Below are positions 195 to 57,304 of a stretch of 64,000 bases of DNA, in pieces. The notes beneath the pieces were generated by a model. The model searched no databases and was not told where the DNA came from. It was given only the letters and a program-made list of their open reading frames with translations. A program made the translations under genes and the position numbers. The DNA comes from a virus, in IMG/VR virus record IMGVR_UViG_3300042503_001836, positions 1 to 64,000 of that record; one strand, given 5' to 3'. Each line of letters opens with the position of its first letter. Position 1 is the stretch's first letter.

Positions 195-312
195 GTTTCA
201 ATCCAACTCCTTGTTACGGGAGTATTTGTGTTTAGCTATTGTTTCAAGCCTGTCTATTAGTTCCTGTTCCTAAATGTTTCAATCCAACTCCTTGTTAAGG
301 GAGTATTTTAGC
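195..312 (-). CRISPR. Degenerate two-repeat mini-array (195-231 and 276-312) of the phage type I-C repeat
   Basis: GTTTCAATCCAACTCCTTGTTACGGGAGTATTT and GTTTCAATCCAACTCCTTGTTAAGGGAGTATTT compared with array consensus GTTTCAATCCAACTCCCTATTAAGGGAGTATTTATAC; 44-nt gap between them. Confidence 0.85.
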
Positions 313-6921: not shown

Positions 6922-7166
6922 AGATCAAGTTCCTTATTCCAATAATGAAACCTCATCATCAGCTTAGTAGCTTGCATCAAAAAGTATTCTCGCAATCCTT
7001 TAAATGACAGTTCTATACACTCATCAGCAAACATAATAGAACCATCGTTAAACACCAGATACTCCATAATACAACAGCCACTAGAATCGTATTTATAGAT
7101 ATCTATCATACGTTCCTTGAGTTGTTTTACCCTACCATTAACTAAATACATCACACAGTGTTTCAA
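6900..7166 (-). CDS. Hypothetical protein starting in, or just after, a solitary CRISPR repeat
   Basis: TTG start inside the repeat, or ATG 8 nt after it. Confidence 0.55.
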   Translation of the reverse strand: MKHCVMYLVNGRVKQLKERMIDIYKYDSSGCCIMEYLVFNDGSIMFADECIELSFKGLREYFLMQATKLMMRFHYWNKELDLWLKKEL

Positions 7167-7196
7167 TCCAACTCCCTATTAAGGGAGTATTTATAC
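7160..7196 (-). CRISPR. Solitary perfect CRISPR repeat (array-1 type)
   Basis: 37/37 match to the array 1 repeat; no neighbouring repeat. Confidence 0.95.
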
Positions 7197-10900: not shown

Positions 10901-10959
10901 TGTTTTGTTTCATAAGTGTGTTATACTATTATAGTAAAATAAGTGTAATAGCAAATAAT

Positions 10960-11697
10960 ATGGATAAGATTGCTGTCCTCAATAAATGCACAGTAGAAGG
11001 TAATGTTGTCAAGTTGCCTGACATACAGTTAGAGCGTGACACATATTTAGAAGTCAAAAAATCCTTAGAACTTATTGGTGGTAAGTGGAAAGGTGGCAAG
11101 GTCTATGGTTTTGTGTTTCAACAAGATCCCACAGAACTATTAGAAGCAATAGCATCTGGTGATAGAAGAAACTTAAAAAAAGAGTTTCAATTCTTTGCTA
11201 CTCCATCTCCAATAGCAGATGAATTAGTAGTTTTAGCAGACATTCAGGAGCAACATTCAATATTAGAACCTAGCGCGGGTCAAGGCGCGATAATACAAGC
11301 AATCAGCCGATTTAATAGTAATATAACAAAAGTTGATTGCTTTGAATTAATGGATTTAAACAGACAAATACTGTCAAAAATACCAAAAGCTAATATATTA
11401 GGTGATGACTTTTTATTAGCTGATATTCAACAACAATATGATCGAATCATAGCTAACCCACCGTTTACTAAAAATCAGGATATTATTCACATAAGAAAAA
11501 TGTATGACTACTTAAAACCTGGTGGTAGGTTAGTTACTGTTTCCTCAAAACATTGGAGTTTTGCTGATGATAGTAAACCAAAAGAGTTCCGATCTTGGTT
11601 AGAGTCCTTAGATCATCAAGTAATCACCAATGAGCCTGGAGTTTTTAAAGAAAGCGGCACAAGTATTCCAACGCTAACTATCATTATTAATAAGTAA
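10960..11697 (+). CDS. SAM-dependent DNA N6-adenine methyltransferase
   Basis: FFATP, LEPSAGQG, IIANPPF, FKESGT. Confidence 0.85.
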   Translation: MDKIAVLNKCTVEGNVVKLPDIQLERDTYLEVKKSLELIGGKWKGGKVYGFVFQQDPTELLEAIASGDRRNLKKEFQFFATPSPIADELVVLADIQEQHSILEPSAGQGAIIQAISRFNSNITKVDCFELMDLNRQILSKIPKANILGDDFLLADIQQQYDRIIANPPFTKNQDIIHIRKMYDYLKPGGRLVTVSSKHWSFADDSKPKEFRSWLESLDHQVITNEPGVFKESGTSIPTLTIIINK

Positions 11698-11742
11698 GAA
11701 TAAATAGGGGATTAATTATTAATCTATTAGTCTCCTATAAAA

Positions 11743-12102
11743 CTAGCTGACTCTAATAAACCTTGGGTAATCACTACCATCAATTATTCCTAAAAACTCA
11801 TCTAATGGTCGCGCCCACATTTGTGGATAGTCAGGATCTACTCGCTGGTAAATTACATAATCACCTTCTAAGCAATCATCAGTATATACCTCATGCTCAT
11901 AGACTAAAGCAGTCTTATTGTTTTCGTAGGCTATGAGACATTCATAACCTGTTTCATGATGTTTAATACCGTCGGTTGTTATATCAAAATCATCTGAATT
12001 TGTTCCTGAAATTGTCCGTCCAGTGACAAATAATATTTTGTAATTATTACCTTTGAAGTGTTGCCATATCTGTCCGGGTTGTGGGGTTCTTTCTAGTTGC
12101 AT
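11743..12102 (-). CDS. DUF1653-like protein
   Basis: G.WQHFKGN.Y, HHET, VIYQ, MWARPLDEF, PRF. Confidence 0.8.
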   Translation of the reverse strand: MQLERTPQPGQIWQHFKGNNYKILFVTGRTISGTNSDDFDITTDGIKHHETGYECLIAYENNKTALVYEHEVYTDDCLEGDYVIYQRVDPDYPQMWARPLDEFLGIIDGSDYPRFIRVS

Positions 12103-12124
12103 AATATAGCCCTTGAAATTGTGA

Positions 12125-12524
12125 AACCCTAGAGATATATCCTTTCTCCAGGGTCGTGTACTTATTTACCAAAGGTAATTTCAGCGCGTTATTTGTTAAA
12201 TCTAACTCTTTTAAAAAAGAGTATTTATTTTTGTGAACTAACTTTTTGATTTCCGGTTGCCACTATTCATGCTTAGACCAGGCGATTTACCACTTATCCA
12301 CTTTGGCATAAAAGCCAAAGACGGGATTTGAACCCGTGTCTCCAAATGTCTTGATAGTGGACGTTGACGTTAGCCGCGCTGTTTTAACTTGAGTCTGTAA
12401 AATAGTTTAAATATTAAACTAAATCTAAAAAGCGTCTCTACCAGTTGGACTACCTGCGGGTAAGTCCGCAGGGTGGGATTTGAACCACACACTTTACTTT
12501 TGTTTTTAGACTCAACTTAAAACA
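12125..12524 (-). ncRNA. Structured RNA with two circularly permuted tRNA-like modules
   Basis: Modules 12432-12490 and 12281-12337 each read T-arm (GGTTCAAATCCC), 7-bp stem closed by a 6-nt loop, then D-arm (NTGGTA); long enclosing helices. Confidence 0.75.
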
Positions 12525-13256
12525 TTATACATCAAAAAGATAAGAAAAAACAGGTGTTGCTACATCTTTTTTCACAACTTCTATAGAGTTAGCTGTTTCC
12601 CTAGCAAACACAACTGCACGAGATAACAGATCAACTCGCTTGACTAATTCGTTTTGATGTGATCTTGTAATCGCCCCGGTAAATTTAACAGTTTTCCATT
12701 TACCTTCAGGAATATCTTCGGATACTTCTTTAACCTGTGCAGGGTGTTCCTTAGTAGCGTCATACAAAACAACAGGCTTAACTACTCGCTTTGTTTTAGT
12801 AGTGTACTTTGGTTCTGTGGAATAGCAGTCTAACTGACTGTTTTTAATCCATTCCTCAGAAATATCCTGTATGGGTAAAGACAATACAAATGTTTTAATA
12901 TCTGTAAGCTGTTTTTCAAGAAACAAGAGATAAGACACAGGAACAGCAGATAGAATGACACTATCACCAACAACGACATCAGCAATAGCTTGAGTATTCC
13001 CCCAATCCTGAGTAGCCGCGACATTAAACAATTCAGTTAACGCTTCTGAGAATTGTTTGATTAGATCCTCAGATTTAAGTTGTAAGTTGTTTTGCTCTGA
13101 TGGGTAGACAAAACCATCTTCCTGAGCAGGTTCATAAGTGCGAGAAATACCGGAAAATAGATCGGATTTTTGAGCTAATTGATAGATTTTAGTGGTGGCT
13201 TTCTTGGCATCAGCCTTCACGCTGTTAAGGATAGCAATTGCTTGATTAAGTTTCAT
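12525..13256 (-). CDS. Conserved helical hypothetical protein directly upstream of the tRNA-like RNA
   Basis: 243 aa; KLNQ.IA, GISRTYEP, VPVSYLLFLEKQL, YDATKEHPAQV, AREAN-like motifs. Confidence 0.85.
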   Translation of the reverse strand: MKLNQAIAILNSVKADAKKATTKIYQLAQKSDLFSGISRTYEPAQEDGFVYPSEQNNLQLKSEDLIKQFSEALTELFNVAATQDWGNTQAIADVVVGDSVILSAVPVSYLLFLEKQLTDIKTFVLSLPIQDISEEWIKNSQLDCYSTEPKYTTKTKRVVKPVVLYDATKEHPAQVKEVSEDIPEGKWKTVKFTGAITRSHQNELVKRVDLLSRAVVFARETANSIEVVKKDVATPVFSYLFDV

Positions 13257-13520
13257 AATTCAATGGAGTCTGTTGTTTCAATAGTATATCTTGTTTTGTG
13301 TAAAGTTGTTTCAATCCAAACGTAAAATAGCATTAATAAAAATATAAATACTTATTAATGTAATAAATACTCTTTCAGAATATTACAGCTTGTTTGGATG
13401 CCATAATATTTATCCCAAGAAATATCAGCATGAGTTCCTGTATCAATCCAGACCTTGATACAAAAAGATGATATAAACTCATGACTCCATCCATCATGAG
13501 TTAGGCTGTTAGATATAGAA

Positions 13521-13784
13521 CTAAAGCGTTTTGATAGTTGAGTTTGATTCATGTTGTGAGTTAAGATCCGATTTTAGTTTTACGTAGTCATTAAAGGGCT
13601 TGGTGAGCGAAGAATCCTTTAATAACAAGGCTTTGAAGTCTCTACTAGCGTGAGCGTTGGAGAGCGAAACTAAAGTAGCAATTTGCGGTACACCTACGTA
13701 GTAGTTACCTTGCTCATCCATTAAACCATCAATAACAAAGAAACCGAATGGGACTTTTTCTGTCTTAGCTGCTAAAATAGTCAT
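13521..13784 (-). CDS. Antirepressor-like N-terminal DNA-binding fragment, possibly truncated
   Basis: IDGLM..G.YYV.VPQIA...ASRDFKALL pattern; overlaps the 13355-13552 ORF in another frame. Confidence 0.45.
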   Translation of the reverse strand: MTILAAKTEKVPFGFFVIDGLMDEQGNYYVGVPQIATLVSLSNAHASRDFKALLLKDSSLTKPFNDYVKLKSDLNSQHESNSTIKTL

Positions 13785-13964
13785 AGTTGCCTACTTTGCT
13801 TAAATGGATTAGGTGACTCCCATCTGATAAAACATTTGAGGCGTGCTACCGTCTCATCTGTTTGATGGGTGAATATGATTTGATTATTGTAGCATTAAAA
13901 TATAAAATATGTGAGATGTTATAGAGTGTATAGCAATACAATAAACATTGATCAACAGAACACA

Positions 13965-14240
13965 ATGAAACAACGAGTAAAACAAATGGAAGATCACCAC
14001 GACACAGGCTTTATAGTTTTGTCCGCAGTTAGGTACGCTATGGGTAGACGTAGTTATGCTGTTGGATTGATTATTGATTGGGTACAACATTTTTGGGATA
14101 AACTTACGCCTAATGATAAGGAATGTATTGCTAGAGATGTTAAAAGATTTGTGGAAAGTGATTACTCAAAAGGCGATGATTGTGATCAACGTGATTGGGA
14201 GAATTTTAATATTTGGATTGCAAGTAAAATAAATACTTGA
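13965..14240 (+). CDS. Hypothetical phage protein
   Basis: SAVRYAMGRRSY...DW motif; ATG after an AACA-rich leader. Confidence 0.65.
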   Translation: MKQRVKQMEDHHDTGFIVLSAVRYAMGRRSYAVGLIIDWVQHFWDKLTPNDKECIARDVKRFVESDYSKGDDCDQRDWENFNIWIASKINT

Positions 14241-14276
14241 CATAGATAAAACAATTTGATATATCTAATCTAGATG

Positions 14277-14309
14277 AAATAATCCCTAATCTATATTAGG
14301 GATTGAAAG
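14277..14309 (+). repeat. Host-type (Nostocales I-D-like) CRISPR-repeat-like hairpin
   Basis: AAATAATCCCTAATCTATATTAGGGATTGAAAG resembles TAATCCCTATTAGGGATTGAAAC-type repeats, with an extended stem; TTGACA at 14237. Confidence 0.55.
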
Positions 14310-14364
14310 ACATTAAAGGTTAAAACAATGCGTAAAACCAAACAAAACAGCACTAACATTGTGT

Positions 14365-16574
14365 GTTTCAATCCAACTCCCTATTAAGGGAGTATTTATA
14401 CCCTTTTTTCTGATTCTCTTGCAATATTCCACATATGTTTCAATCCAACTCCCTATTAAGGGAGTATTTATACGCTAGATGGCAGTGGTGGTCGGATCTC
14501 CAAGCTAGTGTTTCAATCCAACTCCCTATTAAGGGAGTATTTATACTTCCAAATAATGTTATCAGGGCTATTTTTAGCGATAACTATTAACGTTTCAATC
14601 CAACTCCCTATTAAGGGAGTATTTATACCTTATATAAATTAGATGGAATGTTCAAAAACAGGTTTCAATCCAACTCCCTATTAAGGGAGTATTTATACGC
14701 CCCAAGTGACTGCCTATTATCATCCCAGAAGGTTTCAATCCAACTCCCTATTAAGGGAGTATTTATACTTTAATGGATCAAGGTTTTTGCCCGGCAATGA
14801 ACATTGTTTCAATCCAACTCACTATTAAGGGAGTATTTATACTTTAACATTGTTTTTCTGTTCCTATTTGATAAACTTGTTTCAATCCAACTCCCTATTA
14901 AGGGAGTATTTATACCAAAATTTACACAATCTGAAAGAAGTAATTATGTGTTTCAATCCAACTCCCTATTAAGGGAGTATTTATACCTCTTTAGGCAAGA
15001 TCGACACTCTAGTGCCATCGGTTTCAATCCAACTCCCTATTAAGGGAGTATTTATACGTCGCCAGAACTGGTAATACACCTTTCTAGTTTCAATCCAACT
15101 CCCTTAATAGGGAGTATTTATACTAATAGATTGATCCAAGAACTTCAGGATCTAATCCTTGTTTCAATCCAACTCCCTATTAAGGGAGTATTTATACTTT
15201 GACGCTGGCAGTGATGATTTTAGTCAATCTTTAGGTTTCAATCCAACTCCCTATTAAGGGAGTATTTATACGATAATGTTTTAATGCTTTACCCTTCTTA
15301 CCATTAGTTTCAATCCAACTCCCTATTAAGGGAGTATTTATACCCACTTGCAGAAAAAAGAGAGTAGCGATCCTCAGTTTCAATCCAACTCCCTATTAAG
15401 GGAGTATTTATACCACAAGACGCATTTAATCTGATGCTTGATTTACACGTTTCAATCCAACTCCCTATTAAGGGAGTATTTATACTTCTTCTGGTAATTC
15501 TTCTGGACGGATACTCTTAGTTTCAATCCAACTCCCTATTAAGGGAGTATTTATACACAAGGTGAAAGATAACTGGACGTATTACCAACTTACGTTTCAA
15601 TCCAACTCCCTATTAAGGGAGTATTTATACGTAAAACAAATTAAACAAGTATCACCAAGCACTAAGTTTCAATCCAACTCCCTATTAAGGGAGTATTTAT
15701 ACAAAGAATACAGGAAATACACATTGACCATATATTTGTTTCAATCCAACTCCCTATTAAGGGAGTATTTATACAAATGTAGTGACTGTGGTAAATCTTT
15801 CAATGTTTAAGGTTTCAATCCAACTCCCTATTAAGGGAGTATTTATACTCAGATTGCTTAACTGGTTCAGATTGTTTAACTGGTTCAGTTTCAATCCAAC
15901 TCCCTATTAAGGGAGTATTTATACTGTCAAAATTAATTGATAAACCTTTAATATGTGGGTTTCAATCCAACTCCCTATTAAGGGAGTATTTATACTTACA
16001 TCGTATAACCCGGTGTATAAAGTAGTAGTTTCAATCCAACTCCCTATTAAGGGAGTATTTATACCATTAGTTGTTAGTTTAGGAATTGGCATCGAATCAC
16101 AGTTTCAATCCAACTCCCTATTAAGGGAGTATTTATACCTAAAGGTCAAATGGCAGTACATACTCGATAAGGTTTCAATCCAACTCCCTATTAAGGGAGT
16201 ATTTATACTCTACCCTATCCCACCAATCAGCCCCGGTAACGTTAAGGTTTCAATCCAACTCCCTATTAAGGGAGTATTTATACCGAATTAATTGGCCTAG
16301 TGAGACCGCAACCAATACGTTTCAATCCAACTCCCTATTAAGGGAGTATTTATACGTGCAACTGGAGAAATCGGCGAGCGCTCACCTGGAAGTTTCAATC
16401 CAACTCCCTATTAAGGGAGTATTTATACTTTCACTTCTTCAATTCTTAAATTAGCTGTTGTTCGTTTCAATCCAACTCCCTATTAAGGGAGTATTTATAC
16501 GGAAGGGGTGAATTAACTCAACGTCTTAACCCATCCTGTTTCAATCCAACTCCCTATTAAGGGAGTATTTATAC
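14365..16574 (-). CRISPR. CRISPR array 1: 31 repeats (37 nt), 30 spacers
   Basis: Repeat on minus strand GTATAAATACTCCCTTAATAGGGAGTTGGATTGAAAC; period ~72 nt; leader on the cas7 side. Confidence 0.98.
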
Positions 16575-16800
16575 TGCTGCACTCCAGAGTCCTTACTATA
16601 TTTAGTTTTCAAGGTTCAGTTGCGCGGATGGTATTATAATAGTCCATTTCAGAAATTGTGTCAAGGGGCGAAATAGCTGAAACCTTTGCTGTATAAGGTG
16701 CGCGGGTACTTATAATAGTAAAATGGCTGAAATTCTTATATATAAAGAATTTCAGCCATTTTATTCATTACTTATATTTTTACACCCACCCATCCGCGCA
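16575..16800 (-). promoter_or_regulatory. CRISPR leader 1
   Basis: Homologous to 22110-22336 (CCGCG.AACTGAACCTTGAAAACTAAATAT, TTGACACAATT, GCTGAAATTCTT...TTTCAGC). Confidence 0.85.
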
Positions 16801-16802
16801 AT

Positions 16803-17663
16803 TTAGGTTAATTTTGTTAGACTTACTCCGTTGGGCAAATCATTACTAAGTATCACCTGATAATCGCTAAAACTGCGAGGTACAGCAACGGTAGACTTAA
16901 TTTCCAGTTTATCAAATAACTCATGAACAGGCGCACTGCCATACTTATTATCGTGACTAAAAATATACAGACCACGACACGCCATAAGACCACGACTAGC
17001 AGAACGATCAAACTCCCAAGATTTAACAAGTGCATCCCACAATAATTCTAGGTCGCGTTCCGTTACGTGGCTGGCTAAACTAGGATTATAAAAAACGTAA
17101 GAACGATATAAACCATAGGGAATAGTTTCTTTACGACCCATAGTTTTGTTGTCTTTGTTTTCTTGGGCTTCAGTGGACGCACAGCGAGTAATGCAAACAG
17201 ATTGAGGAAATATAGGATCAATGCTTCTAGCAAAGCTAAATTGTGACGCACCCCATACCTGTCCTGCTTGGTAGTCTCCAGTAGACATAACTGCACCAAA
17301 CATTCTTACATCATAGTAATTTTGGCGCATCCAATTATTAACAACGTCAACACCAGTTTTATCTTTTTTAGACTTCTTAGTTCCAGAAGCATCATAAGCC
17401 GCTTCTAAAGTATTGTTCAGAACCGATCCTGACTTAATAAAGATTCTGAATCTTTCTGGTTTTTGCTCATCAGAGGCAACCATTTGAATGTAGTTCCTAA
17501 CTTTACGTTTTAGACAAGCATCAGTTACCAAACCTTGATTAGTTTGAGGATCAATTCGTGGTTGATTACCAGCATCAGGATCACCGTTAGGATTACCGTC
17601 AAGACAATCAAATAATAGAATAGCGTCGTGTTTTTTGGTTGGGTCTAAATAAATCTGTGTCAT
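16803..17663 (-). CDS. cas7: Type I-C Cas7 (Csd2)
   Basis: GNPNGDPDAGNQPRID, TDACLKRKVRNY, DVRMFGAVM, TMGRK..IPYGLY. Confidence 0.95.
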   Translation of the reverse strand: MTQIYLDPTKKHDAILLFDCLDGNPNGDPDAGNQPRIDPQTNQGLVTDACLKRKVRNYIQMVASDEQKPERFRIFIKSGSVLNNTLEAAYDASGTKKSKKDKTGVDVVNNWMRQNYYDVRMFGAVMSTGDYQAGQVWGASQFSFARSIDPIFPQSVCITRCASTEAQENKDNKTMGRKETIPYGLYRSYVFYNPSLASHVTERDLELLWDALVKSWEFDRSASRGLMACRGLYIFSHDNKYGSAPVHELFDKLEIKSTVAVPRSFSDYQVILSNDLPNGVSLTKLT

Positions 17664-17681
17664 GATGTTTACCTTTTGTTA

Positions 17682-19337
17682 TTAGTCGTTTTCAGTTTCA
17701 GTAGTTTCTAATTCAGCTTCAGTTCTTTTAGCATAGAACTCACTTTTCATTTGCCACCAACCTTGAAAGAATAAAGCTTGAGACTTTGTATCAAGAATAT
17801 CTGGCAGACTAGTTATATCAAAATCCTTAAATTCTTCAGTTAATTTAGGTTTGATATAACCAACATTTTCTAAGTGATAACCCATGCAGTGACTACAGAT
17901 TTTAGCAAACACTTGGGAAGGTGTAGATGATAAAATTTTCAAGTTTTTCATCACTACAGTTTTATCCTCAGAAATCTTCTGTGATTTCCAATGTACAGTG
18001 TGAAATAAGAAAGATATTCTACCCAGTTTAAAGGCAGAATCTAAGGTTAATTGTCCAGTGGGATAACTCATGTTATTGCTTGCTAAGTACAGATATAAAC
18101 CTTGTGCTTTGACATAGCTAAATTGTCTTTCTGCACAGATTCTAGAAATAATCTTTTGGGCGTAACCATCCGATAAGGCAGATCCGAGTAGTGCAAATTT
18201 GGTAATTTCTCTAGCGATACGTGACTTGTAATTGTCCTTACCATCAGCAAAAGCACATTTCACTAACAACCAAATTGGACTAGCTTTAGTAGCGCAACTC
18301 AGTTGTATTTCTACAAATCTTTTTAGGGATGATTTGACCTGACCTAAAGTGGTTTCTGTCCAACTAGATAAAGATATTCTCCCAGCGTTACCAGTTAGGC
18401 AAGCTATGAAAAATAGACTTTCTTCCAGTTCCTCAACATTCAGATTTTGAGGTTTATTTGGCGTGGAAAATATAGTTTCTAAAGATGGGTTATCCCACAC
18501 TTCGGCATTTATACCTTCACTGGTTTCCTCACCCCAATAAACAAAAACCTGATTTTCTGTCTTGAACCTATTGTTAGGTGAATCAAGTAAAAAGTTAAGT
18601 GTCTTATGTGTTCTAATTGCGCTTCTAATACTCATAGAAGCATTAGCATTACCAGCTAATCCATAAGACTCAGTAACTTCTTTATCAAAACTTACTAAAG
18701 CTGCACCTGCTGACTGGGAATTAGGAACGCCTTTAATCTTTAGTGGAACTACAGTTTTTAAAACTAATGCCTGTTCTTCACCGGATATTAAACAAAGTCC
18801 TCGTGTTCCTTCATTAAGCTTCAAAAGGTCACTATTTGCCTTCTTAACCCACCATTCCTTAATAATAGGAATACTGGTTATTTGCTCACCATCTAGCAAA
18901 AAAACAAATACTGATTTAACCCAATCTTCTTTAACTTTAGGGTTAACCTCTTTTAGCTGCTTAAATATCTTAGAACTGTCAGTTGATGTGACATATTCAT
19001 AGACTTTCCTAACAGCTTCATGTTCAGTAGCATTAATACATTGCTGTAATAACTCTAAGTACAAAGGCTGTCTTTTTCGTCCACGATCACCAGCACCAAA
19101 TAAATATTCAGCACTATCATCTATTAAAAGAGGTTTTTCACCATTCCTTAACAGATCCGGTACTAAAAGTTTCTTACTTAATGATGGTTGTCCTTTACTT
19201 TTTGGTGTTTCTAAAGACGTTATACTACCACTACTTAAATCAATAGCATAGTTAACACCTTTAGACTCGTAACCGTAGGGAGATAGTAAATTTTGACTAT
19301 CTAAAAACTTGCCTAGTTTATCTAATTCGGACAGCAT
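17682..19337 (-). CDS. cas8c: Type I-C Cas8c (Csd1)
   Basis: Lies between cas5 and cas7; CLISG, KIKGV...GAALVSF..ESYG, L.GNAGRIS, C-terminal Cas11-like F.LGR...QALF..G. Confidence 0.88.
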   Translation of the reverse strand: MLSELDKLGKFLDSQNLLSPYGYESKGVNYAIDLSSGSITSLETPKSKGQPSLSKKLLVPDLLRNGEKPLLIDDSAEYLFGAGDRGRKRQPLYLELLQQCINATEHEAVRKVYEYVTSTDSSKIFKQLKEVNPKVKEDWVKSVFVFLLDGEQITSIPIIKEWWVKKANSDLLKLNEGTRGLCLISGEEQALVLKTVVPLKIKGVPNSQSAGAALVSFDKEVTESYGLAGNANASMSIRSAIRTHKTLNFLLDSPNNRFKTENQVFVYWGEETSEGINAEVWDNPSLETIFSTPNKPQNLNVEELEESLFFIACLTGNAGRISLSSWTETTLGQVKSSLKRFVEIQLSCATKASPIWLLVKCAFADGKDNYKSRIAREITKFALLGSALSDGYAQKIISRICAERQFSYVKAQGLYLYLASNNMSYPTGQLTLDSAFKLGRISFLFHTVHWKSQKISEDKTVVMKNLKILSSTPSQVFAKICSHCMGYHLENVGYIKPKLTEEFKDFDITSLPDILDTKSQALFFQGWWQMKSEFYAKRTEAELETTETEND

Positions 19338-19963
19338 AATACACCGTCCTTTAATATAAAATTGGCAAATTCAACAACAGATTTTCCTTTGGTAATCCCA
19401 TTTTTAGACTTCCAGGAAATTTTACCTTTCTTATCTGGAATAAAATGCTCTTGTTTAGGCATCATTCCCAGATCCTTAACACCTCTCAAAGTTGCGCTAG
19501 GGTATTCTTTTTCTTGGGGTAATCCAAAGTAAGCAATATACTCTCGACAGCCAAAATAAGGCTGTTTAAAACATTTACCTTCTTTGATTCTGTCAGCAAT
19601 AATCGCGTAATACTTATCAGGATTAAGGTTGTCATCTGTTAATTCAAAGCAAAAATCAATGTGATAGGCAACGTCTTTTAACAATATCTGAGTCCGTTGT
19701 GTACGGTCTTCCTCAATTGTCTTTAACTTACCCACATTGCGGTAACTTTGCTTTGACTTGATCATGTTCCGCATGACGGACAAATGTTTGATTGGCTTTA
19801 GTACAGAAATACTATTTATGGAATATTTTATCTCAGGTTTCCAAAAAATAGATTCTAGGATGCCAACAGCCGCAGTGAACGTCATAACTGGATAGGTATG
19901 CGGTTCACTCTTGTACTCAGGTCTGGTAAATAGGGCAAAGTCACCCCAAACTTTTAATTGCAC
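19322..19963 (-). CDS. cas5: Type I-C Cas5 (Cas5d, crRNA-processing)
   Basis: VWGDFALFTRPE.K.E..TYPV.T..AA.GILESIFWKP, RTQR, QPYFGCREY. Confidence 0.95.
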   Translation of the reverse strand: MQLKVWGDFALFTRPEYKSEPHTYPVMTFTAAVGILESIFWKPEIKYSINSISVLKPIKHLSVMRNMIKSKQSYRNVGKLKTIEEDRTQRTQILLKDVAYHIDFCFELTDDNLNPDKYYAIIADRIKEGKCFKQPYFGCREYIAYFGLPQEKEYPSATLRGVKDLGMMPKQEHFIPDKKGKISWKSKNGITKGKSVVEFANFILKDGVLCCPN

Positions 19964-20042
19964 ACAATAAACCTTTGCTCTCTCTAATTTTGTAAAATAA
20001 TGTTAGTCTTATTTTACGTTGTCTCCTTATCATAATGTACTA

Positions 20043-22097
20043 ATGAGATATTTGTCAAGAGTCAATAAAAACAGTCTAAAACAAGAATTAAAACAGCACT
20101 TAACTAACGTTGCTACAACGTCTAAAAGCATTGTACCATCTGAGTTTCAAGCAGTAGCCTATTATGCCGGGCTATGGCATGATCTAGGTAAGTATAGAGA
20201 AGAATGGCAATATTATTTATTACAACGGGTCGCAGGTGACAAAGTAAAAACTATATCACACGCTGCTCATGGTGCAGTATTAGCTTTGCAGTCACACACA
20301 AGCAAGAAAGATCCGCCAGCTATGGCTTATATAATTGCCGGACATCATGCAGGCTTATATGCTAAAGACAAGTTAAAAGGAACTGAGTACAAACAAAAAG
20401 CAGAAGGTCTAAACGAGTGTTTATGCAACGCTAAAGATGAAATACCTGGTTTTATGCCGGACAAATTACCAGATATTGATTTACCTAAACTATCTAGGGA
20501 GTTTGCTATCAGGATGTTATTTTCTGTGGTAGTTGATTGTGATCGCACCGATGCCCAAATATTTGAATCTGGTAAACCACCTGCACAAATTAAAGACATA
20601 ATTCCTAACTTCCCTACATTCTCTCATACTTCAGATATTGGATTAATTAGGTCTAAGTTTGCAAATTATTGTATAAACGCAGCTAAATACAATAAAGGAT
20701 TTTTTAGATTATCCGGTGCTTGTGGAATAGGTAAGACCATTGCAAGTGCTAAGTTTGCTTATTTGCACAGTGATATTCATAATATGTCAGGAATAGTTTA
20801 TGTTAGTCCGCTAAAAAGCATTATTGAACAAACAGCTAATGTATACCGGGATCTGTTTGGTGATAATGCAGTATTAGAACATCATTCAGGATATGACCCT
20901 AGTGAAGCTAACCATGAAGAGTATAAGCTAAACACAGAAAGATGGGATAAACCAGTAATTGTTACTAGCGGTGTACAGTTTTATGAAAGTTTATTTGCCA
21001 ATAGTCCCTCTAAGTGCCGTAAACTGCAAAGCTTAATCAACAAAGTGATCTTAATAGATGAATCTCAAACTATACCCACTCATTTAGTCCGTCCAACCTT
21101 AGATGTACTAAAAAGTTTAGTTAATGATTGGGGCTGTACTGTAGTTTTAATGAGTGCCACACAGCCAGCATTTAACAACCTAAAAAATGATGATATCAAA
21201 AACATTACAAATATAATCCCTGAACAAGATTGTATAGATTTTTTTGATAAACTTAACAGGGTTAACTATAAATTTAATCCGGCTTTGTGGGAAATAGAAA
21301 ACCTAAAAGATGACGTGATTAATTCAGGAATAAAGCAAGGTTTAATAATAGTTAACACGACTAAACTAGCAAGAGACATCTATCAGGAATTATCTGAATA
21401 TTTACCCTGTTATCATCTCAGTTCTAGAATGTGTCCCGCACATAGACAAGCAACATTAAACACAGTAAAGACGTTATTAGCTGACAATAAACCATGTTTT
21501 TTAGTTAGTACACAAGTAATAGAAGCAGGAGTAGACATAGACTTTCCTCAAGTATGGAGACAGTTAGCACCATTAGATGCAATTATCCAAGCTGCGGGTA
21601 GATGCAACCGTGAGGGTAAACAAGATAAAGGCAATGTAATAATTTTTAAGATGAAAGGTTTTGTTTCATCTGACTATAATAATCGTCAAAAAATCACAGA
21701 ACAGTTATTACTACAAACGGATCTAAATATTAATATGCTTAACACAATTAATAGATATTTCCGTATTCTGTACAATGAAAACCATGATGGCGGATTAGAA
21801 ATACAAAAGCTTAGGGAAAACTATAATTATCCCGAAGTAGCAGAAAAATATAAAGTTTTGGATGACACACAGATATCTGTAGTAGTTGAATATGGGGATA
21901 ATCAACAATTATTAAATGAGTTAAAAACTAAGGAATTTTTAACTAACAATGACTGGAGAAAATTACAGAAATTTACAGTCAATTTACCGCAAAGTATGGT
22001 TGATTTTGAGGAAGTCAATGGAGTAAAATATTGGATAGGGGAGTATAATAATAATGTTGGTTGTCTACCCTTCGAGTATAAAGTTTTAATAGCATAA
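20043..22097 (+). CDS. cas3: Cas3 HD-nuclease/helicase, compact and divergently transcribed
   Basis: HL, WHDLGK, GHH, VVDCD, G.GKT, IDESQ, MSATQP, STQVIEAGVDIDF, QAAGRCNR. Confidence 0.95.
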   Translation: MRYLSRVNKNSLKQELKQHLTNVATTSKSIVPSEFQAVAYYAGLWHDLGKYREEWQYYLLQRVAGDKVKTISHAAHGAVLALQSHTSKKDPPAMAYIIAGHHAGLYAKDKLKGTEYKQKAEGLNECLCNAKDEIPGFMPDKLPDIDLPKLSREFAIRMLFSVVVDCDRTDAQIFESGKPPAQIKDIIPNFPTFSHTSDIGLIRSKFANYCINAAKYNKGFFRLSGACGIGKTIASAKFAYLHSDIHNMSGIVYVSPLKSIIEQTANVYRDLFGDNAVLEHHSGYDPSEANHEEYKLNTERWDKPVIVTSGVQFYESLFANSPSKCRKLQSLINKVILIDESQTIPTHLVRPTLDVLKSLVNDWGCTVVLMSATQPAFNNLKNDDIKNITNIIPEQDCIDFFDKLNRVNYKFNPALWEIENLKDDVINSGIKQGLIIVNTTKLARDIYQELSEYLPCYHLSSRMCPAHRQATLNTVKTLLADNKPCFLVSTQVIEAGVDIDFPQVWRQLAPLDAIIQAAGRCNREGKQDKGNVIIFKMKGFVSSDYNNRQKITEQLLLQTDLNINMLNTINRYFRILYNENHDGGLEIQKLRENYNYPEVAEKYKVLDDTQISVVVEYGDNQQLLNELKTKEFLTNNDWRKLQKFTVNLPQSMVDFEEVNGVKYWIGEYNNNVGCLPFEYKVLIA

Positions 22098-22109
22098 ATA
22101 CTTAGTATC

Positions 22110-22336
22110 AAGCGCGTGTGGTTGGGTGTGAAAATCTAGATAATGAATAAAATAGCTGAAATTCTTGATAGGTAAGAGTTTCAGCTATTTTGTTTTTGTA
22201 AGTACCCGCGCCTTAGTAATGGTAAGGGTTTCGGCTGTTTTTGCTGTTGACACAATTCCTGGAATGGGGTATGATTATCTCATCCGCGAAACTGAACCTT
22301 GAAAACTAAATATAATCAGGCTTTTAGAAAGCAACA
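22110..22336 (+). promoter_or_regulatory. CRISPR leader 2
   Basis: Homologous to leader 1; TTGACA...TATGAT promoter. Confidence 0.85.
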
Positions 22337-23888
22337 GTATAAATACTCCCTTGATAGGGAGTTGGATTGAAACAACCCTATTTGGATAATAGGGTTAATC
22401 ACCTTGGTATAAATACTCCCTTGATAGGGAGTTGGATTGAAACATTGACCTTGCCGATCTGGTTCATACCTACCGCAATGTATAAATACTCCCTTGATAG
22501 GGAGTTGGATTGAAACAAATCATCTATTGTGCGATCGCCTATAGATGGAGATAGTATAAATACTCCCTTGATAGGGAGTTGGATTGAAACATTGTTCCAA
22601 CTGCAAGTAACTTTATCAATAATCCGTATAAATACTCCCTTGATAGGGAGTTGGATTGAAACGTAGCGTTCATATCTAGCAGCCCCTTATCTTGGTATAA
22701 ATACTCCCTTGATAGGGAGTTGGATTGAAACTCAGCAGTTAGATATTTTTCACCTTTCAAGTTAGGTATAAATACTCCCTTGATAGGGAGTTGGATTGAA
22801 ACCACACCCATAATTAACTGAGCCGCTTCAGAAGCTTGGGTATAAATACTCCCTTGATAGGGAGTTGGATTGAAACGCCAATCCAATACGTTACAGACTG
22901 ATAGCTGACCCCGTATAAATACTCCCTTGATAGGGAGTTGGATTGAAACGCTTTGATAGGCAATCCCCTTTAAGTCCTTACCAGGTATAAATACTCCCTT
23001 GATAGGGAGTTGGATTGAAACTTCTATTCCTTCGAGGCTGCACACTCTAACATATTCGGTATAAATACTCCCTTGATAGGGAGTTGGATTGAAACTTTAA
23101 TGTTGCCATTAATCAGCCAGGCGCGAATGTATAAAGTATAAATACTCCCTTGATAGGGAGTTGGATTGAAACATCTGGTTTAGCACTACTAGCTATGGTG
23201 AAAAATTTGGTATAAATACTCCCTTGATAGGGAGTTGGATTGAAACAACCTAAGCGTAAAGCTAAAACGGACAACCTTTAAGTATAAATACTCCCTTGAT
23301 AGGGAGTTGGATTGAAACCACTTTTGGTTAACGGGTAGTCGGTAAAAAGGTCATGGGTATAAATACTCCCTTGATAGGGAGTTGGATTGAAACTTATTAT
23401 TGGAAAACTTTTTAACCATAGCCAGTATAAATACTCCCTTGATAGGGAGTTGGATTGAAACTTAACGCTTTACCCTTCTTACCGTTAGACACCCTGTATA
23501 AATACTCCCTTGATAGGGAGTTGGATTGAAACAATCTGTTTTAGTCCATCAGATAATAGTTGGGAATTTTGACGTATAAATACTCCCTTGATAGGGAGTT
23601 GGATTGAAACAATCTGTTTTAGTCCATCAGATAATAGTTGGGAATTTTGACGTATAAATACTCCCTTGATAGGGAGTTGGATTGAAACAATGGTGCGATC
23701 GCTCAAAAGTATAAATACTCCCTTGATAGGGAGTTGGATTGAAACGTTCACTTCTTCAAAATAATCTAATTCATTCTCAGTATAAATACTCCCTTGATAG
23801 GGAGTTGGATTGAAACTTTTGTCTGCTATCGTTCTAGCAGTGATAACCCAGGTATAAATACTCCCTTAATTGGGAGTTGGATTGATAC
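22337..23888 (+). CRISPR. CRISPR array 2: 22 repeats (37 nt), 21 spacers
   Basis: Repeat GTATAAATACTCCCTTGATAGGGAGTTGGATTGAAAC, 1 nt different from array 1; degenerate terminal repeat at 23852-23888. Confidence 0.98.
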
Positions 23889-26799: not shown

Positions 26800-26800
26800 G

Positions 26801-26902
26801 ATAAATACTTCTTGAAAAGGAGTTGGATTGAAACAAAATAGCGAGATAAATACTCCCTTAACCGGAAGTTGGATTGAAACATAAAACAAAACGGATTGAA
26901 AC
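26801..26902 (+). CRISPR. Collapsed intercistronic repeat cluster: two degenerate repeats plus a handle-only remnant
   Basis: Repeats at 26801-26834 and 26846-26880, GGATTGAAAC at 26893-26902; gaps of 11-12 nt. Confidence 0.85.
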
Positions 26903-29957: not shown

Positions 29958-31984
29958 TCAATAATTCCTCAAAATCAATTCTTTACAACCTTCCCGACTG
30001 CCTAATTTACAGGCAATATTTCGACTTGCTGACACTTCTGTTTTTTGCAAAAAGTGTAAATCATCCCAGTAGTTAGTATTGCTACTGCTCAAGATTATTT
30101 TAGCTTCTTTGCTATTTTGCAACCTGATAAACTCAGCCAGCATTAAGTTATCAGCCAGACCCCATCCATCTTTACCATATCCCACAAAATTAGCTGTGTG
30201 ACTTGCTGGTATATATGGCGGATCTAAATAAACCAAAGTATCACTATCAATAAAAGCAGAACACTCTTGATAGTCGCTTGACTTGATAAACACATTGCGT
30301 AGTTTTTCTGAAACTAACTCAAGGTTGTGGCTATCACATATAAGAGGATTGTCATATTTACCAAAAGAAGTATTAAAGCCACCATCAGATTTTCTCACCC
30401 TCCATAAACCATTAAAGCACGTTCTGTTTAAAAAGATAACAATAGCTGCACGGATAACATGATTAGTAGAATAACCATCATAATTAAAAGTTTTAGCTTC
30501 CACATTAAACTTTTGCCGCACAGCCTCAAAATACTTTCTGCGGTCGTCATCTGACCTCTGAAGGTAATCATCTTGAACTTTAGTCAGAATACTAATTAAC
30601 CGAGTAACATCCTGTTGAATGACTTTATAAGTGAGCATTAAATCCAGGCTATTATCGTTAATTAGCACCTCCTGAATATTGTCCTCACTATTAAGTAAGT
30701 GGAACAATAAAGCTCCGCCACCAACAAAGGGTTCACAGTATTTATAGAACTTAGGTAGGTCTAGTGTGAGAGCATTTAATAGCTGTGTCTTACCACCTGC
30801 CCATTTTAAGAAAGGCTTTGCTCTTGAATTAGTTTTTATCACAGATTTGTTCTCCTGTTTTATCTCTAATGCAGTTGTTTTTATCGTATGTTCTAATACT
30901 GGAAGCTTAATGTCTAAATAACTACTAACATTCTGAGGATTTTTATTTTTCCTAGGTTTGAAAACGGAATCTTCATAAGGTAAGTTCAATATTCTCTTAT
31001 GTTCTGATACTATCCAATCATTTGTATATGTTTCAGGATAGCAAAAATCATCTTTTAATTTTTCCTCTATTTCTGTAATCTCCTCTTGAGTAATATAACC
31101 AAGATTTAGTAGCTTTTGTTTATCTAGTTTTTTCCATATACTTCTGCGGTCTTCTATATAAATAGCCCCAAAGTTTTTAGTCTTTTTACTGTGTATTCGT
31201 CTACAGTTTCTTAACTTTTCTAAAACCTCTCTAAATTCTAATGCGTTTTCCCGTGTTTCATCTTTTTTTAATGTATTAATAGTGATGACTGGACACATTA
31301 AGCAACCCATTCTTAAACTCCCCTTCTCATCTGTAGCTTGTGAGTAAGTTGATTTCATTAGATTAAAAACACCATCATACAAAACTGTCCCATCAGCATA
31401 AAATATTAAATCCCAGACATCACAGTTTCTCAAATTAATAATAGGATCATGTGAGTTTTTTATTTTATCAATACCACATTCACCTGTATTACATGGTGTT
31501 TGTAGTCTAGTGTCTCTAGAAGAGCTTTCTCCTAAATGTCTTCCTGTTAATGCTTGACTGCCTTGTTTCTTTCTTTTGTTTTGTGGAGATACTTTGAGAT
31601 AGTTTGTACACCACCTGTTACGCCAATCTGGTACAGGATACCCTTTGACAAACTGGTAATACCAATAGCTATAATCGGGATCTAATTTATAGAAATTTAC
31701 AATACCTTGTAAAAAATTTTCTATTCTACTTATTACTGTATAAAGAGATTTTGTTTCTAATCTTGTATCAGCAAATAGCACTTCAAAATTATCTGTGTTC
31801 TTATTATATAATTTCTTCCAAAGCAAAAATACTATAAGTAGTGCATGGGAATCTTTACCACCACTAAAAGCAAGATGGTATTTGTTACAAGGACTCAGAT
31901 TGTCAATATATGTGATAGCATCTAAAACTTTAGTTAATAAAGGCAAATCTTCACATTTTAAAATTTTTTTTAATTTATCTATCA
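29958..31984 (-). CDS. Fusion: PAPS-reductase/DndC-like domain plus Dam-family adenine methyltransferase
   Basis: AFSGGKDS, RWCT..LKV.P, RMGCLMC; then KPFLKWAGGK, EPFVGGGA, YLDPPY, all in one frame. Confidence 0.85.
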
Positions 31985-32127
31985 TTTTATTGTACCTTGC
32001 ATCTTTGTGATATTTGATAATTTGATTGTTTATAACAATAACACACTCATGATTTAATGTCAAGCGTAATCTGGTAAAATACTAAAATATGTTGTATAGT
32101 ATTTTAAAATGTTTCTAATGTAAACCA

Positions 32128-34823: not shown

Positions 34824-36272
34824 CTAGACTAGAAGCTCAACAGTCACATGACCGTGATCACATACAACACGTTTTACAAGATCCTGAAATAAAATCCGTT
34901 GTTCTTCTACCGTTGCCTGCCTCCAAAGCTGCGGCATAGCTGCATAATGTCTCATTAGTTCATATTTACTATCAAGACCTGTTGATATATTCTCCCGTTT
35001 TAAAGACATCAACAGGTTTTCTAATTTAGTCTGTTTCATCTGAATTGCTTCTTGCAAATCAGGGTCATTAAGTCCTATCAGTTTTTTTATTTGTTGCCTA
35101 ATCTCATCTATTTCCGGCGTTGTTTCCTTTATTTCCTCATGCTGTATAACTTGATTGGCTATTTCATCAGCACGTTGACATAGCGCATTGATAACATAAG
35201 TAATACAATCCTCTATAACTAAGCTATAACTAGCTTTTCTATCACAAGTCGCTAGTTTACCTGGTTCTGGATAAGCATTTTTGCAAAGTAAATAGCTATA
35301 CTTGGTAGTTTCACCTGCCTTAGTTGTGAACTTACTGCTTTGAACACGCATAAAACCACCACAACCAGCACAATATATAAGCCCTATTAACGGGTTTATG
35401 ACGATAGACCTTTTGCGCTTAGTTAGATGTGACTTGTCAAGAATATTACAAATTTCTATATATTTCTCATCTGATAAAATCCGTTCAAACTTATCAGGAA
35501 TAAGCACTCGTTTATTATTATCCTGGTTAAAATAGACTAGGAAACCTCGGAGCATGGGATGTAATAACCACTTCCTAAACCCGCCATGACTATGGGGATG
35601 ATCGGGTATTAATTTTGATTTACTAAATTCAAAACCGTACAGCATATTAAACTTTTTAACAGTACCACTCAATGACCTAGACTGACAGAAATAATCAATC
35701 ATATCTATGGCTACTTGATAATAACTTCTGTTAGATTCTTTATATAAATCATGGTTTATAATCAAAGTGTCATCTACTTTTTTATAACCAAACAAAGCCT
35801 GAAAGACTTTTTCCTGCGCTCTAAAATATTTGACACCTTCCCTAGAATTGTGGATAATCAAATCACGTTCTCTTTCAGCTAAGGCTGATTTTAGTCGTAA
35901 ATTAAACAGGTCATCTGGTTTATCTAATCCAAGTTGGCCACCATCAAGGAAAACAAGAATAACTCCAGTATTTTTTAGTTCCTCCAGTTCTTGCTCAAAA
36001 TGTAGCGATGATCGCGTAAACCTTGAAAAGTAGGGGATAACTAATTTTTTAATTTTCCCAGCCTTGATTAAAGTCAAAACCTTCCGATAATTAACGCGGC
36101 TATCTGAAGCACCACTATCAATATCCCAATAGATTTGGTCATCAGTTAACCCATAATTCCGTAAAGCCTCAATATATCTTTCCAGTCCGTGACCTTCTAA
36201 TTGTTGCCGTTGAGTAGAGACACGGCAGTACCCGACACTATACTTTAAATCCTTATCCTGCATAACTTTCAC
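34824..36272 (-). CDS. Large serine recombinase (integrase-like)
   Basis: YCRVST, DSGA...R, SRFTRS, recombinase domain, CAGC...C...C zinc ribbon, coiled coil. Confidence 0.92.
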   Translation of the reverse strand: MKVMQDKDLKYSVGYCRVSTQRQQLEGHGLERYIEALRNYGLTDDQIYWDIDSGASDSRVNYRKVLTLIKAGKIKKLVIPYFSRFTRSSLHFEQELEELKNTGVILVFLDGGQLGLDKPDDLFNLRLKSALAERERDLIIHNSREGVKYFRAQEKVFQALFGYKKVDDTLIINHDLYKESNRSYYQVAIDMIDYFCQSRSLSGTVKKFNMLYGFEFSKSKLIPDHPHSHGGFRKWLLHPMLRGFLVYFNQDNNKRVLIPDKFERILSDEKYIEICNILDKSHLTKRKRSIVINPLIGLIYCAGCGGFMRVQSSKFTTKAGETTKYSYLLCKNAYPEPGKLATCDRKASYSLVIEDCITYVINALCQRADEIANQVIQHEEIKETTPEIDEIRQQIKKLIGLNDPDLQEAIQMKQTKLENLLMSLKRENISTGLDSKYELMRHYAAMPQLWRQATVEEQRILFQDLVKRVVCDHGHVTVELLV

Positions 36273-56049: not shown

Positions 56050-57115
56050 GTCGGCGCGGAAATTCCAATTAGCTAACTATAAACACTTAATTAGGTAATT
56101 TATAAAACAGTAAGCAGTTAGTATAGTAATTATGTACTAAAGTAAAAATTGACAGCACAAATGTTTGAGCATTTTTAGTTAAAAAAACTTTTTAATGCCC
56201 GGTTTTCTATTTAATTTTTTAAGCCGTAATAAACCCTATGGATAACTGACATCCTATCCACTAGATGTCAAGGGCTATAGCTGGCTGTTAACCTACAGCC
56301 AGAGTTACTTTAGTTTCTTCAAATTAATCAGGTTGCGAGCCGTCATTCTTTTTAGTCCCCTCAGATAAATCTGTTTTACCCACAGATGGGAGTCAAATTA
56401 CCTTTTAACCAATAGGCTTGTCTGTTTTTGTTTAGGATTCGCGGTCTTCAACATACTTCATCCAAGACGCTAAGTGTCGTTTAGCTGCGTCCTATTTACT
56501 TGATCAGCTAGGTTACTGATATGTGGGTGTTTTTACATCTTGCTCTGATGGTTTTTGCGCTTATACAGTCGCACTTTCGATACCCAATAGAATTTGCTAA
56601 CATCTACACCGCCGCACCTGGAGTCATTTATTTCTAAAAGTAGTTCCCATTGTCGTTTCAATCCAACTCCCTATTAAGAGAGTATTTATACATTCCCCTT
56701 GTCTAGTTAATACCTAATGTTCATGGAAATCGCGCTCAAATATGGATCTAGTTTTTTGGTTCAATCCCTTCAGTAAAGTCTCACTACCTTACTAAATTTT
56801 TGATATCCCCTCAAGTCCGCCCAATTATATTGTCCCCATTTCAGGGTATCGTCATGGCCAACGCAATCTGCACTACTTTTTTATTGATTCACTTTTAATC
56901 CTTACAGGATTTAGGTCTCAACTAGAATCCGCCACGCGCACGCATACGGACTAGAAGCAATTTCCAATTAAAAACTAAATGAGAGTCTTTAATTTTCAAG
57001 CCGGGTAATGACTTCACCGACTCATCTTGCGTTCCTTACTGGTCTAGGGCTTTTATAATAAACGCTGAGGTGTGTTACAACGCTCGATTGTTTCGCCTAT
57101 CAGATTTATTCGATT
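56050..57115 (-). ncRNA. Putative long non-coding RNA B (3' end uncertain)
   Basis: Promoter at 57122-57150 followed by ~1 kb with no ORF in the track; contains an embedded CRISPR repeat. Confidence 0.5.
56655..56691 (-). CRISPR. Solitary CRISPR repeat inside region B
   Basis: 36/37 match to the array 1 repeat; the single change gives a U-G pair on the minus strand. Confidence 0.93.
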
Positions 57116-57267: not shown

Positions 57268-57304
57268 GTTTCAATCCAACTCCCTATCAAGGGAGTATTT
57301 ATAC
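57268..57304 (-). CRISPR. Solitary perfect CRISPR repeat (array-2 type)
   Basis: 37/37 match to the array 2 repeat; lies in the 3' region after ORF 57354-57623, before a terminator. Confidence 0.95.

Follow-up and report, generated by a model that had tools for sequence, protein, structure and literature searches.

A cyanophage type I-C CRISPR-Cas module with leaders of the host type I-D kind and a possible supply of spacers by host adaptation proteins

Positions 14,365 to 23,888 of the stretch analysed here, i.e., the first 64,000 nucleotides (nt) of the IMG/VR virus record IMGVR_UViG_3300042503_001836 (hereafter the window), hold a type I-C CRISPR-Cas module of four cas genes between two arrays. 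The full record is linear, spans 118,553 bp at a CheckV completeness of 93% and represents a tailed cyanophage of ~118.5 kb infecting filamentous cyanobacteria of the Nostocaceae family. Among its products are a large terminase, tail fibre proteins and a major head/protease protein, and also a DNA polymerase, a ribonucleotide reductase, further replication proteins and several DNA methyltransferases; the terminase, head, tail fibre and replication genes mark it as a bona fide phage genome. Across 301 genomes of the host family, no copy of the major head gene was found, giving no evidence of a prophage copy; spacer loading in a prophage state can therefore not be asserted, notwithstanding a serine recombinase of 482 amino acids (aa) encoded at 34824-36272.

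The module comprises array 1, the genes cas7-cas8c-cas5c on the minus strand, a divergent cas3 on the plus strand and array 2 (Table 1). This layout was already proposed in a first-pass annotation of the sequence, and its count of 51 spacers (30 and 21) and its two homologous leaders were likewise recovered, the leaders aligning throughout with 77% identity over their last 130 nt. Both arrays read away from the genes, with the CRISPR RNA (crRNA) sense on the minus strand for array 1 and on the plus strand for array 2, and each leader follows the last gene of its block, i.e., cas7 or cas3; the degenerate final repeat of array 2 is consistent with this orientation. Assignment to type I-C is based on Cas8c, a Csd2-kind Cas7, a Cas5c without Cas6 and a Cas3 with fused HD and helicase parts, and the type I-C NCBIfam models for Cas7 and Cas5c as well as the general models cas3_core and cas3_HD all scored above their cut-offs. 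Cas8c passes the Pfam cut-off and stays below that of NCBIfam and is, by these model scores, a divergent family member. Each of the four genes has an uninterrupted, full-length reading frame with intact domains. The 37-nt repeat, differing between the two arrays at one loop base, is predicted to fold into an 8-nt tail, a 7-bp stem, a 4-nt loop and an 11-nt 3' tail (-10.7 kcal/mol; at most one of 200 shuffled sequences folded as well), in agreement with the stem and handle described earlier. Hairpin and 11-nt tail, the latter being the predicted 5' handle of the crRNA and shared with host I-C repeats, are those of a type I-C repeat.

Table 1. Features of the CRISPR-Cas locus and solitary repeats in the window.
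Feature	Position	Strand	Remarks
CRISPR array 1	14365..16574	-	31 repeats of 37 nt, 30 spacers (29-45 nt); leader-proximal end 16574
leader 1	16575..16802	-	promoter-like site 16664-16636 (TTGACA-17-TATTAT), three CGCGC boxes; host I-D leader kind, judged by alignment
cas7 (csd2), 286 aa	16803..17663	-	Pfam PF05107 1.6e-87; TIGR02589 280.7 bits (cut-off 182.25)
cas8c (csd1), 551 aa	17682..19337	-	PF09709 9.4e-61, 206.6 bits (cut-off 27); TIGR01863 173.7 bits (cut-off 218.65)
cas5c (cas5d), 213 aa, presumed pre-crRNA nuclease	19322..19963	-	PF09704 2.8e-26; TIGR01876 130.9 bits (cut-off 85)
promoter-like site upstream of cas5c-cas8c-cas7	20029..20058	-	11/12 matches, consensus match only
cas3, HD nuclease and helicase, 692 aa	20019..22097	+	cas3_core 128.4 bits (cut-off 102.45); cas3_HD 82.6 (cut-off 43.45)
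leader 2	22098..22336	+	hairpin 22147-22193 after cas3; promoter-like site 22247-22275; homologous to leader 1 and host I-D leaders
CRISPR array 2	22337..23888	+	22 repeats, 21 spacers; last repeat degenerate
solitary repeat, intergenic	7160..7196	-	conserved in sister phage L140
degenerate solitary repeat	26844..26880	+	second degenerate copy 9 nt upstream (region 26800-26880); conserved in L140
two solitary repeats	56655-56691, 57268-57304	-	576 nt apart; copy in L001
two degenerate repeat copies	~195-231, ~276-312	-	each followed by similar sequence

Six-frame searches of the whole 118,553-bp record revealed no Cas1, Cas2, Cas4, Cas6 or Cas1d, and tblastn searches of the record with host Cas4, Cas1d and Cas2 gave no match. 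The absence of cas1, cas2 and cas4, initially noticed at the locus, hence extends over the entire 118.5-kb record, which does not provide the cas4-cas1-cas2 set of a type I-C system. The nearest relatives of the phage Cas7 are Nostocales I-C proteins of ~70% identity (Dolichospermum, Sphaerospermopsis), and a Cas7 match at E <= 1e-30 was present in 13 of 401 sampled cyanobacterial genomes, four of these at 70-72% identity. As a comparison set we used five genome loci and nine metagenome loci of the cyanobacterial I-C type, including that of a sister phage described below; 80 more distant I-C loci from other phyla, among the matches listed, served as control. Chromosomal cyanobacterial I-C loci have the same gene order as the phage, with divergent cas3 and cas5-cas8c-cas7-leader-array. 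None of 15 cyanobacterial-type I-C loci (the sister phage's included) contained homologues of Cas4, Cas1d or Cas2, for which a control locus was positive, and in four of five genomes Cas1 was separated from the I-C locus by over 400 kb or lay on a different contig, the fifth having no Cas1 match. Given that 65 of the 80 control loci (among the matches listed) feature a Cas1 homologue, the loss of adaptation genes is to be ascribed to the cyanobacterial clade and not to the phage.

Repeat length leads to a similar picture. The arrays adjoining a cyanobacterial-type I-C cas7 all have 37-nt repeats ending in ...G(G/A)(A/T)TTGAAAC with an 11-nt tail (13 of 13; one locus was arrayless in the part fetched), and 37 nt was also found for 24 of 46 control arrays, with 17 at 31-33 nt (among the matches listed). 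A 37-nt repeat is thus ordinary for this I-C branch. The first-pass annotation had assumed that I-C repeats are typically ~32 nt long and had read 37 nt as a mark of a hybrid repeat, a marker we rejected because this length is common in type I-C and universal in the cyanobacterial clade. Since the chromosomal I-C loci share both the gene absence and the general leader family with the phage, the “hybrid” state largely predates the phage. The earlier idea that repeat and leader were reshaped is not supported by the length of the repeat.

Host genomes holding type I-C contain further arrays downstream of Cas1, including type I-D loci, one of which (L107) was typed as cas10d-csc2-csc1-cas6-cas4-cas1d-cas2-leader-array. 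Phage leaders, host I-D leaders and host I-C leaders all align over ~230 nt and share three invariant CGCGC boxes, and hence make up a single leader family. The phage leaders feature the I-D states of the -35 box (TTGACA) and of the block GCAACTGAACCTTGAAAACTAAATATA, where host I-C leaders read GCAAATCGTTGTGGAAATGTCCTATTT instead. Comparing the last 130 nt in three same-genome pairs, leader 1 showed 85, 79 and 75% identity to I-D leaders versus 66, 67 and 70% to I-C leaders, and leader 2 reached 78, 75 and 77% versus 68, 69 and 68%, so that I-D was favoured in three of three comparisons for both leaders. In the larger collection, 32 I-D-type leaders were 72-88% identical to leader 1 and 72-79% to leader 2 (last 130 nt), and nine I-C leaders 63-72% and 68-73%, respectively. 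Best matches to the phage leader had been picked for 30 among the 33 I-D-type loci fetched and for 29 among the 32 leaders compared, which leaves the three same-genome comparisons as the only unbiased ones. When leader 2 was used as a DNA query, a homologue was recovered in 217 of 301 host-family genomes, with cas1d-cas2 directly upstream in 17 of 33 loci and an I-D-type repeat ending in ...TCCCTATTAGGGATTGAAAC following the homologue in all 18 loci parsed (of 30). Leaders of other Cas1-linked arrays (L103, L105, L106, L108, L109) did not resemble those of the phage. With their homology to leaders downstream of cas4-cas1d-cas2, the phage leaders belong, judged by sequence, to the host type I-D leader kind, as the alignment suggested in the first-pass annotation was expected to reveal.

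Each of the two phage leaders also contains a promoter-like site with 11 of 12 matches, and a third such site is located upstream of cas5c. The core of the three boxes, TGCGCGG, CCCGCGCAC and (T/C)CGCG(C/A)A, does not vary among the eight aligned leaders, which are of types I-C and I-D; the observation refers to leaders 1 and 2 (for coordinates see Table 1) and to the host loci L095-L098, L102, L104 and L107. The boxes are candidate binding sites for a leader-binding factor.

Evidence for the turnover of the arrays came from a sister phage represented by the metagenome contig L140, whose Cas7 is 99% identical and which is syntenic with the window at 4510-29183 with 89-98% nucleotide identity. 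Its cas7-side array has six spacers, none of them common to the 30 of the window, and of the 14 in its cas3-side array only three, located at the trailer end, recur among the 21 of the window. Common old spacers together with differing new ones represent the signature of polarised acquisition after the divergence of two phages and, as far as can be judged from these two genomes, the arrays turn over at the leader end. In two pairs of independent spacers, both members match one target region, each on a different strand; no trial with shuffled spacers yielded more than one such pair, and one was seen in two of 20 trials. The exact repeat pattern had no match in 185,579 species genomes, which renders wholesale copying from a host array unlikely, and occurs in IMG/VR outside this record as one solitary copy only, at the end of contig L001.

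Spacer targets were searched in the 301 host-family genomes. The spacers gave no match to the phage's own genome, no meaningful match to GenBank phages and, for two degenerate spacer patterns, no match in IMG/VR. The main target is an island of 16,980 bp on contig C102 of genome G421 (L191:3916 to L192:994), whose borders are two tRNA-Gly(TCC) copies with a direct repeat of 118 nt and which encodes a terminal tyrosine integrase, a HerA/FtsK-like ATPase and genes without family match. At least seven spacers match within the island with one to six mismatches, an eighth (24/35) being weak; these spacers stem from both arrays and from the sister phage, and no spacer matches the flanking housekeeping genes. 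Island-related sequences in other genomes are also matched. One of the island proteins, a helicase-type protein of 1467 aa, is 23% identical to a putative replication protein of 1472 aa of the phage; tblastx of the island against the phage gave nothing at 1e-5, a comparison to PHROGs yielded the integrase only, and none of ten island proteins was hit in PADLOC. The island may be a phage parasite or a defence element.

Beyond the island, array 1 spacer 13 (15631-15665) matches at 35 of 35 positions a gene for a NarL-type response regulator (REC and LuxR HTH) in two genomes and at 32-33 of 35 positions nine further loci fetched, with the flank ATT or ATC (regulator loci L196:1036-1740 and L197), and another spacer matches a gene without family match adjoining a ParM-like gene. 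Among the five target-bearing genomes, three have a Cas1d above the I-D cut-off and none has an intact I-C Cas7. A 121-residue I-C Cas7 fragment with an in-frame TGA in G421 (C240:21752-22114) may be a decayed chromosomal I-C locus. Conversely, chromosomal I-C spacers from genome G138 (locus L097) and from a metagenome locus (L142) match the phage with four to eight mismatches at record positions 67517-67558, 67680-67718, 84875-84908 and 91664-91701, which suggests that hosts of the same family aim the same kind of system at it.

The natural matches provided 11 distinct spacers with mapped targets for an analysis of the protospacer-adjacent motif (PAM). The 5' flanks read GTT and GTC in three cases each, ATT in four and GCC in one, i.e., RTY in 10 of 11 (background 8.2%, p=1.5e-10) and GTN in 6 of 11 (background 5.1%, p=7e-6), and TTC was not among them (0 of 11; background 1.9%). 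Their composition departs strongly from random, G or A standing at -3 and T at -2, and flanks deduced from overlapping spacer pairs were GTC, GTT, ?TA and ATT. The 3' flanks show no motif by eye, which supports the assigned protospacer orientation. The four host I-C spacers matching the phage have the flanks ACT, ATT, ATT and GTG, again none with TTC. Cas4 of the Synechocystis I-D system selects GTN, with repeats of 37 bp and spacers of 35 bp (PMC5896167). For type I-C, the published motif is TTC; it is recognised through residues N72 and Q212 of Cas8c, and the preprint in question suggests that the preference is set at acquisition (10.1101/2022.06.15.496202). On these sequence data, the mapped flanks are I-D-like (RTY/GTN) and not of the I-C TTC kind.

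Leaders, flanks and polarised turnover together lend support to the core proposal of the first-pass annotation that host proteins load the phage arrays. As a whole, we consider it reasonably probable that the phage carries an I-C interference module which derives from a cyanobacterial I-C lineage whose genomes keep their adaptation genes at I-D loci, and which is fed by the host I-D loader and directed against island and other host-resident elements. During infection, the host I-D proteins Cas4-Cas1d-Cas2 would integrate new spacers at the leader-repeat junctions of the phage; phage Cas5c would cut the array transcripts, leading to crRNAs with the 11-nt handle, and the phage Cascade together with Cas3 would destroy the targets, chiefly the 17-kb tRNA-Gly island, as well as other elements resident in the host and one or more regulator genes of host type. 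In target-bearing hosts, the phage would thereby supply the effector and the host the loader. A more far-reaching scenario, which we put forward as possible rather than probable, is that the cyanobacterial I-C lineage, which shares the I-D leader family and whose array spacers would be flanked by GTN/RTY in place of TTC, gave up its adaptation genes and uses the I-D Cas4-Cas1d-Cas2, that the phage acquired the resulting effector-only module and equipped it with two leaders of I-D type, and that host enzymes now enter spacers in the phage genome, to be used by the phage in an arms race with the island resembling that of ICP1 and PLE.

Several observations weigh against a loading by the host I-D proteins. 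The phage repeat differs from I-D repeats in sequence and hairpin position, so that recognition by the I-D integrase is not self-evident, and the identity of the loader follows by inference only. Furthermore, 16 of 33 host leader homologues do not adjoin cas1d-cas2 within the DNA fetched, and the conserved leader blocks include the promoter, so that the likeness may reflect shared transcription control instead of integration signals. As regards the flanks, four of 11 are ATT and thereby outside the published GTN, one of these belonging to a 35/35 match, one further flank is GCC, and the mapped targets are few, some of them with five to eight mismatches. The equivalents of D. vulgaris Cas8c N72 and Q212 are kept in the phage Cas8c, and with these TTC-reading residues in place the sequence gives no sign of an altered PAM reading. 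G421, a fragmentary assembly holding the best-matching island, has Cas1 matches only below the I-D cut-off, the closest named host I-C loci (Dolichospermum, Sphaerospermopsis) lie outside the leader and repeat comparison set, and the record, being linear and 93% complete, is not a closed phage genome.

Some of these points would also fit a different origin of the spacers, namely that the arrays were loaded or changed by another host Cas1-Cas2 or by recombination with arrays of related phages or of unsampled host I-C loci, the I-D-like leader being only a host-tuned promoter. Host genomes hold two to four Cas1 genes, several of other types, beside arrays with other repeats, and the phage leaders are as near to host leaders as to each other, as expected after recombination; the ATT flanks, the overlap of the conserved blocks with the promoter and the leader homologues without adjoining cas1d-cas2 point in the same direction. 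However, the exact repeat was absent from the 185,579 species genomes and present in only one other IMG/VR copy (L001), spacer sharing restricted to the trailer end is what polarised integration leaves behind, no likeness to the phage leaders was seen in those of other Cas1-linked arrays, and the flanks are far from random. We therefore regard this alternative as unlikely, albeit the most serious one.

Adaptation genes of the phage itself, either in the unsequenced part or too divergent to be recognised, are very improbable. The record is incomplete and many phage genes lack a family match, but neither the six-frame nor the tblastn searches gave any Cas1, Cas2, Cas4 or Cas1d candidate, the chromosomal relatives with the same operon layout are likewise without these genes, and the place directly after cas7, where canonical I-C adaptation genes follow, is occupied by the leader. 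Slightly more improbable still is a module captured from a host as an inert passenger or joined to the phage by an assembly error, with the arrays as frozen relics without a role for the phage. The score of Cas8c below the NCBIfam cut-off speaks for this reading; yet all four genes are intact, an independent contig shows the same locus in the same phage synteny, the leader-end spacers differ between the two phages, real mobile elements contain targets of the spacers and these have a consistent flank, and both leaders have strong promoter-like sites. Host loading by the I-D proteins remains the explanation we prefer.

Copies of the repeat also occur outside the arrays (Table 1). Three of these solitary-repeat sites are conserved in related phage contigs, two in L140 and one in L001, and the copy at 57268 is positioned between a promoter-like site and a terminator-like hairpin (~85 nt on), like a small RNA gene. 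The solitary repeats could be Cas5c processing sites or one-guide units. Sequences adjoining them had no convincing target in local data or the 301 genomes; 14 weak matches were obtained in the latter, and two partial ones that were inspected had the flanks AAA and TAC. Within array 2, a 41-nt spacer is tandemly duplicated (23533-23573 = 23611-23651), and a 20-nt spacer at 23689-23708, common to the sister phage, contains the cyanobacterial HIP1 palindrome GCGATCGC.

The surrounding genome holds further features. About 3.4 kb adjoining the trailer end of array 1 (10951-14364; methyltransferase-like, DUF1653 and DUF7873 genes) have no counterpart in L140, where array 1 immediately adjoins the 10950 side. 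A fusion protein of 701 aa with a PAPS-reductase-like domain and a DNA methyltransferase is encoded at 29958-32063, and the ribonucleotide reductase (37769-41209) has an inserted endonuclease-like part, its relatives in Nodularia phages being annotated as intein-containing. Further along the record, there are an open reading frame of 5050 aa (69322-84474) and the large terminase of 904 aa (94054-96768), the N-terminal part of which is primase/helicase-like. Many other phage genes have no family match.

How phage arrays without cas1 and cas2 gain spacers is an open question, for which the locus points to the host I-D Cas4-Cas1d-Cas2 as a specific donor, to the I-D-type leader with its three CGCGC boxes as the signal and to the GTN/RTY flanks as a read-out. 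As the I-D adaptation module is functional in E. coli (PMC5896167), the idea of host loading is directly testable. The locus furthermore suggests an I-C Cascade working with a non-TTC PAM, which fits the acquisition-set preference put forward in the preprint cited above (10.1101/2022.06.15.496202) and would let compact I-C editing tools reach a wider range of targets. It also points to a conflict between phage and chromosomal island in filamentous cyanobacteria that form blooms. Already known are cyanophage arrays, adaptation in trans and CRISPR systems of phages that lack adaptation genes. In the accessible text of open papers and preprints, including a review (PMC11903412), no report of a cyanophage with a Cascade-Cas3 module was found, and the open papers and preprints accessible to us likewise contained none of cyanobacterial I-C loci without adaptation genes sharing I-D leaders and flanks.

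Compared to canonical type I-C systems, e.g., of Desulfovibrio vulgaris and Bacillus halodurans, the phage module shares the HD-domain Cas3, Cas5c, Cas8c and Cas7 in the absence of Cas6 as well as a repeat hairpin followed by the 11-nt ...GGATTGAAAC tail, 37-nt repeats being frequent in this branch. It differs by lacking cas4-cas1-cas2 (Cas1 being present in 65 of 80 other I-C loci among the matches listed), by a cas3 that diverges from the cascade operon and has its own array, by the leader of I-D kind, and by RTY/GTN flanks instead of the TTC reported (10.1101/2022.06.15.496202). Closer to the phage are the chromosomal I-C loci of the Nostocales type (G042, G066, G108, G138; L141-L145, L179), which have the same gene order, 37-nt repeats with 11-nt tail, no adaptation genes and leaders of the same family with three CGCGC boxes. 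Their Cas7 is, however, only 64-72% identical to that of the phage, the repeat stem differs in sequence, there is one array versus two, and the leaders are without the I-D-specific blocks.

Cyanobacterial I-D systems, with Synechocystis 6803 as model, share 37-nt repeats, spacers of ~35 nt, a GTN-like flank and a homologous leader (PMC5896167). Their hairpin, in contrast, abuts the 3' end of the repeat with a 4-nt tail (ATTGAAAC handle), whereas the phage repeat has a tail of 11 nt; repeat geometry and effector genes, with no Cas6 in the record, hence set the phage apart from type I-D. The I-D effectors Cas10d, Csc1 and Csc2 are missing from the locus, which holds I-C genes only, the rest of the record not having been searched for these three. 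Among phages of filamentous cyanobacteria, CRISPR arrays are also present in vB_AphaS-CL131, where a TnpB-like type V-U2 protein accompanies an array of 10 spacers, and in N-1, which has an array only; a Cascade-Cas3 module is found in neither (PMC6293099). We accordingly rejected a CL131-like phage with the same CRISPR system, the system of CL131 being type V-U2 in that description. The cas region and both arrays gave nothing meaningful against GenBank phages, with no nucleotide match of the cas region to CL131 or N-1, and a Cas7 search of IMG/VR yielded no other phage.

Vibrio phage ICP1, reportedly described by Seed and colleagues in 2013 (a study cited in PMC7162821 and PMC6293099), is said to direct a CRISPR-Cas system of type I-F against the PLE island and to carry its own adaptation genes. 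Both are lytic-type phages with a complete type I interference system and spacers matching a similar-sized, integrase-bearing host island. The subtype differs (I-F versus I-C), as do the adaptation genes, reportedly present in ICP1 and not found in the cyanophage, and the cyanobacterial island is not known to act against phages, with none of ten of its proteins recognised by PADLOC. A further parallel is given by huge phages, for which CRISPR systems without adaptation genes are described (PMC7162821), and by co-resident systems, between which adaptation in trans was reportedly proposed or shown (10.1101/2020.02.20.957498; 10.1101/2024.10.25.620265). With these the cyanophage shares an effector with arrays in the absence of Cas1, Cas2 and Cas4 and variable spacers. 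Different is that the borrower here is a phage-borne I-C system, that the putative donor subtype can be named from leader and flanks, and that the sister genome of this phage displays a polarised turnover of its spacers.

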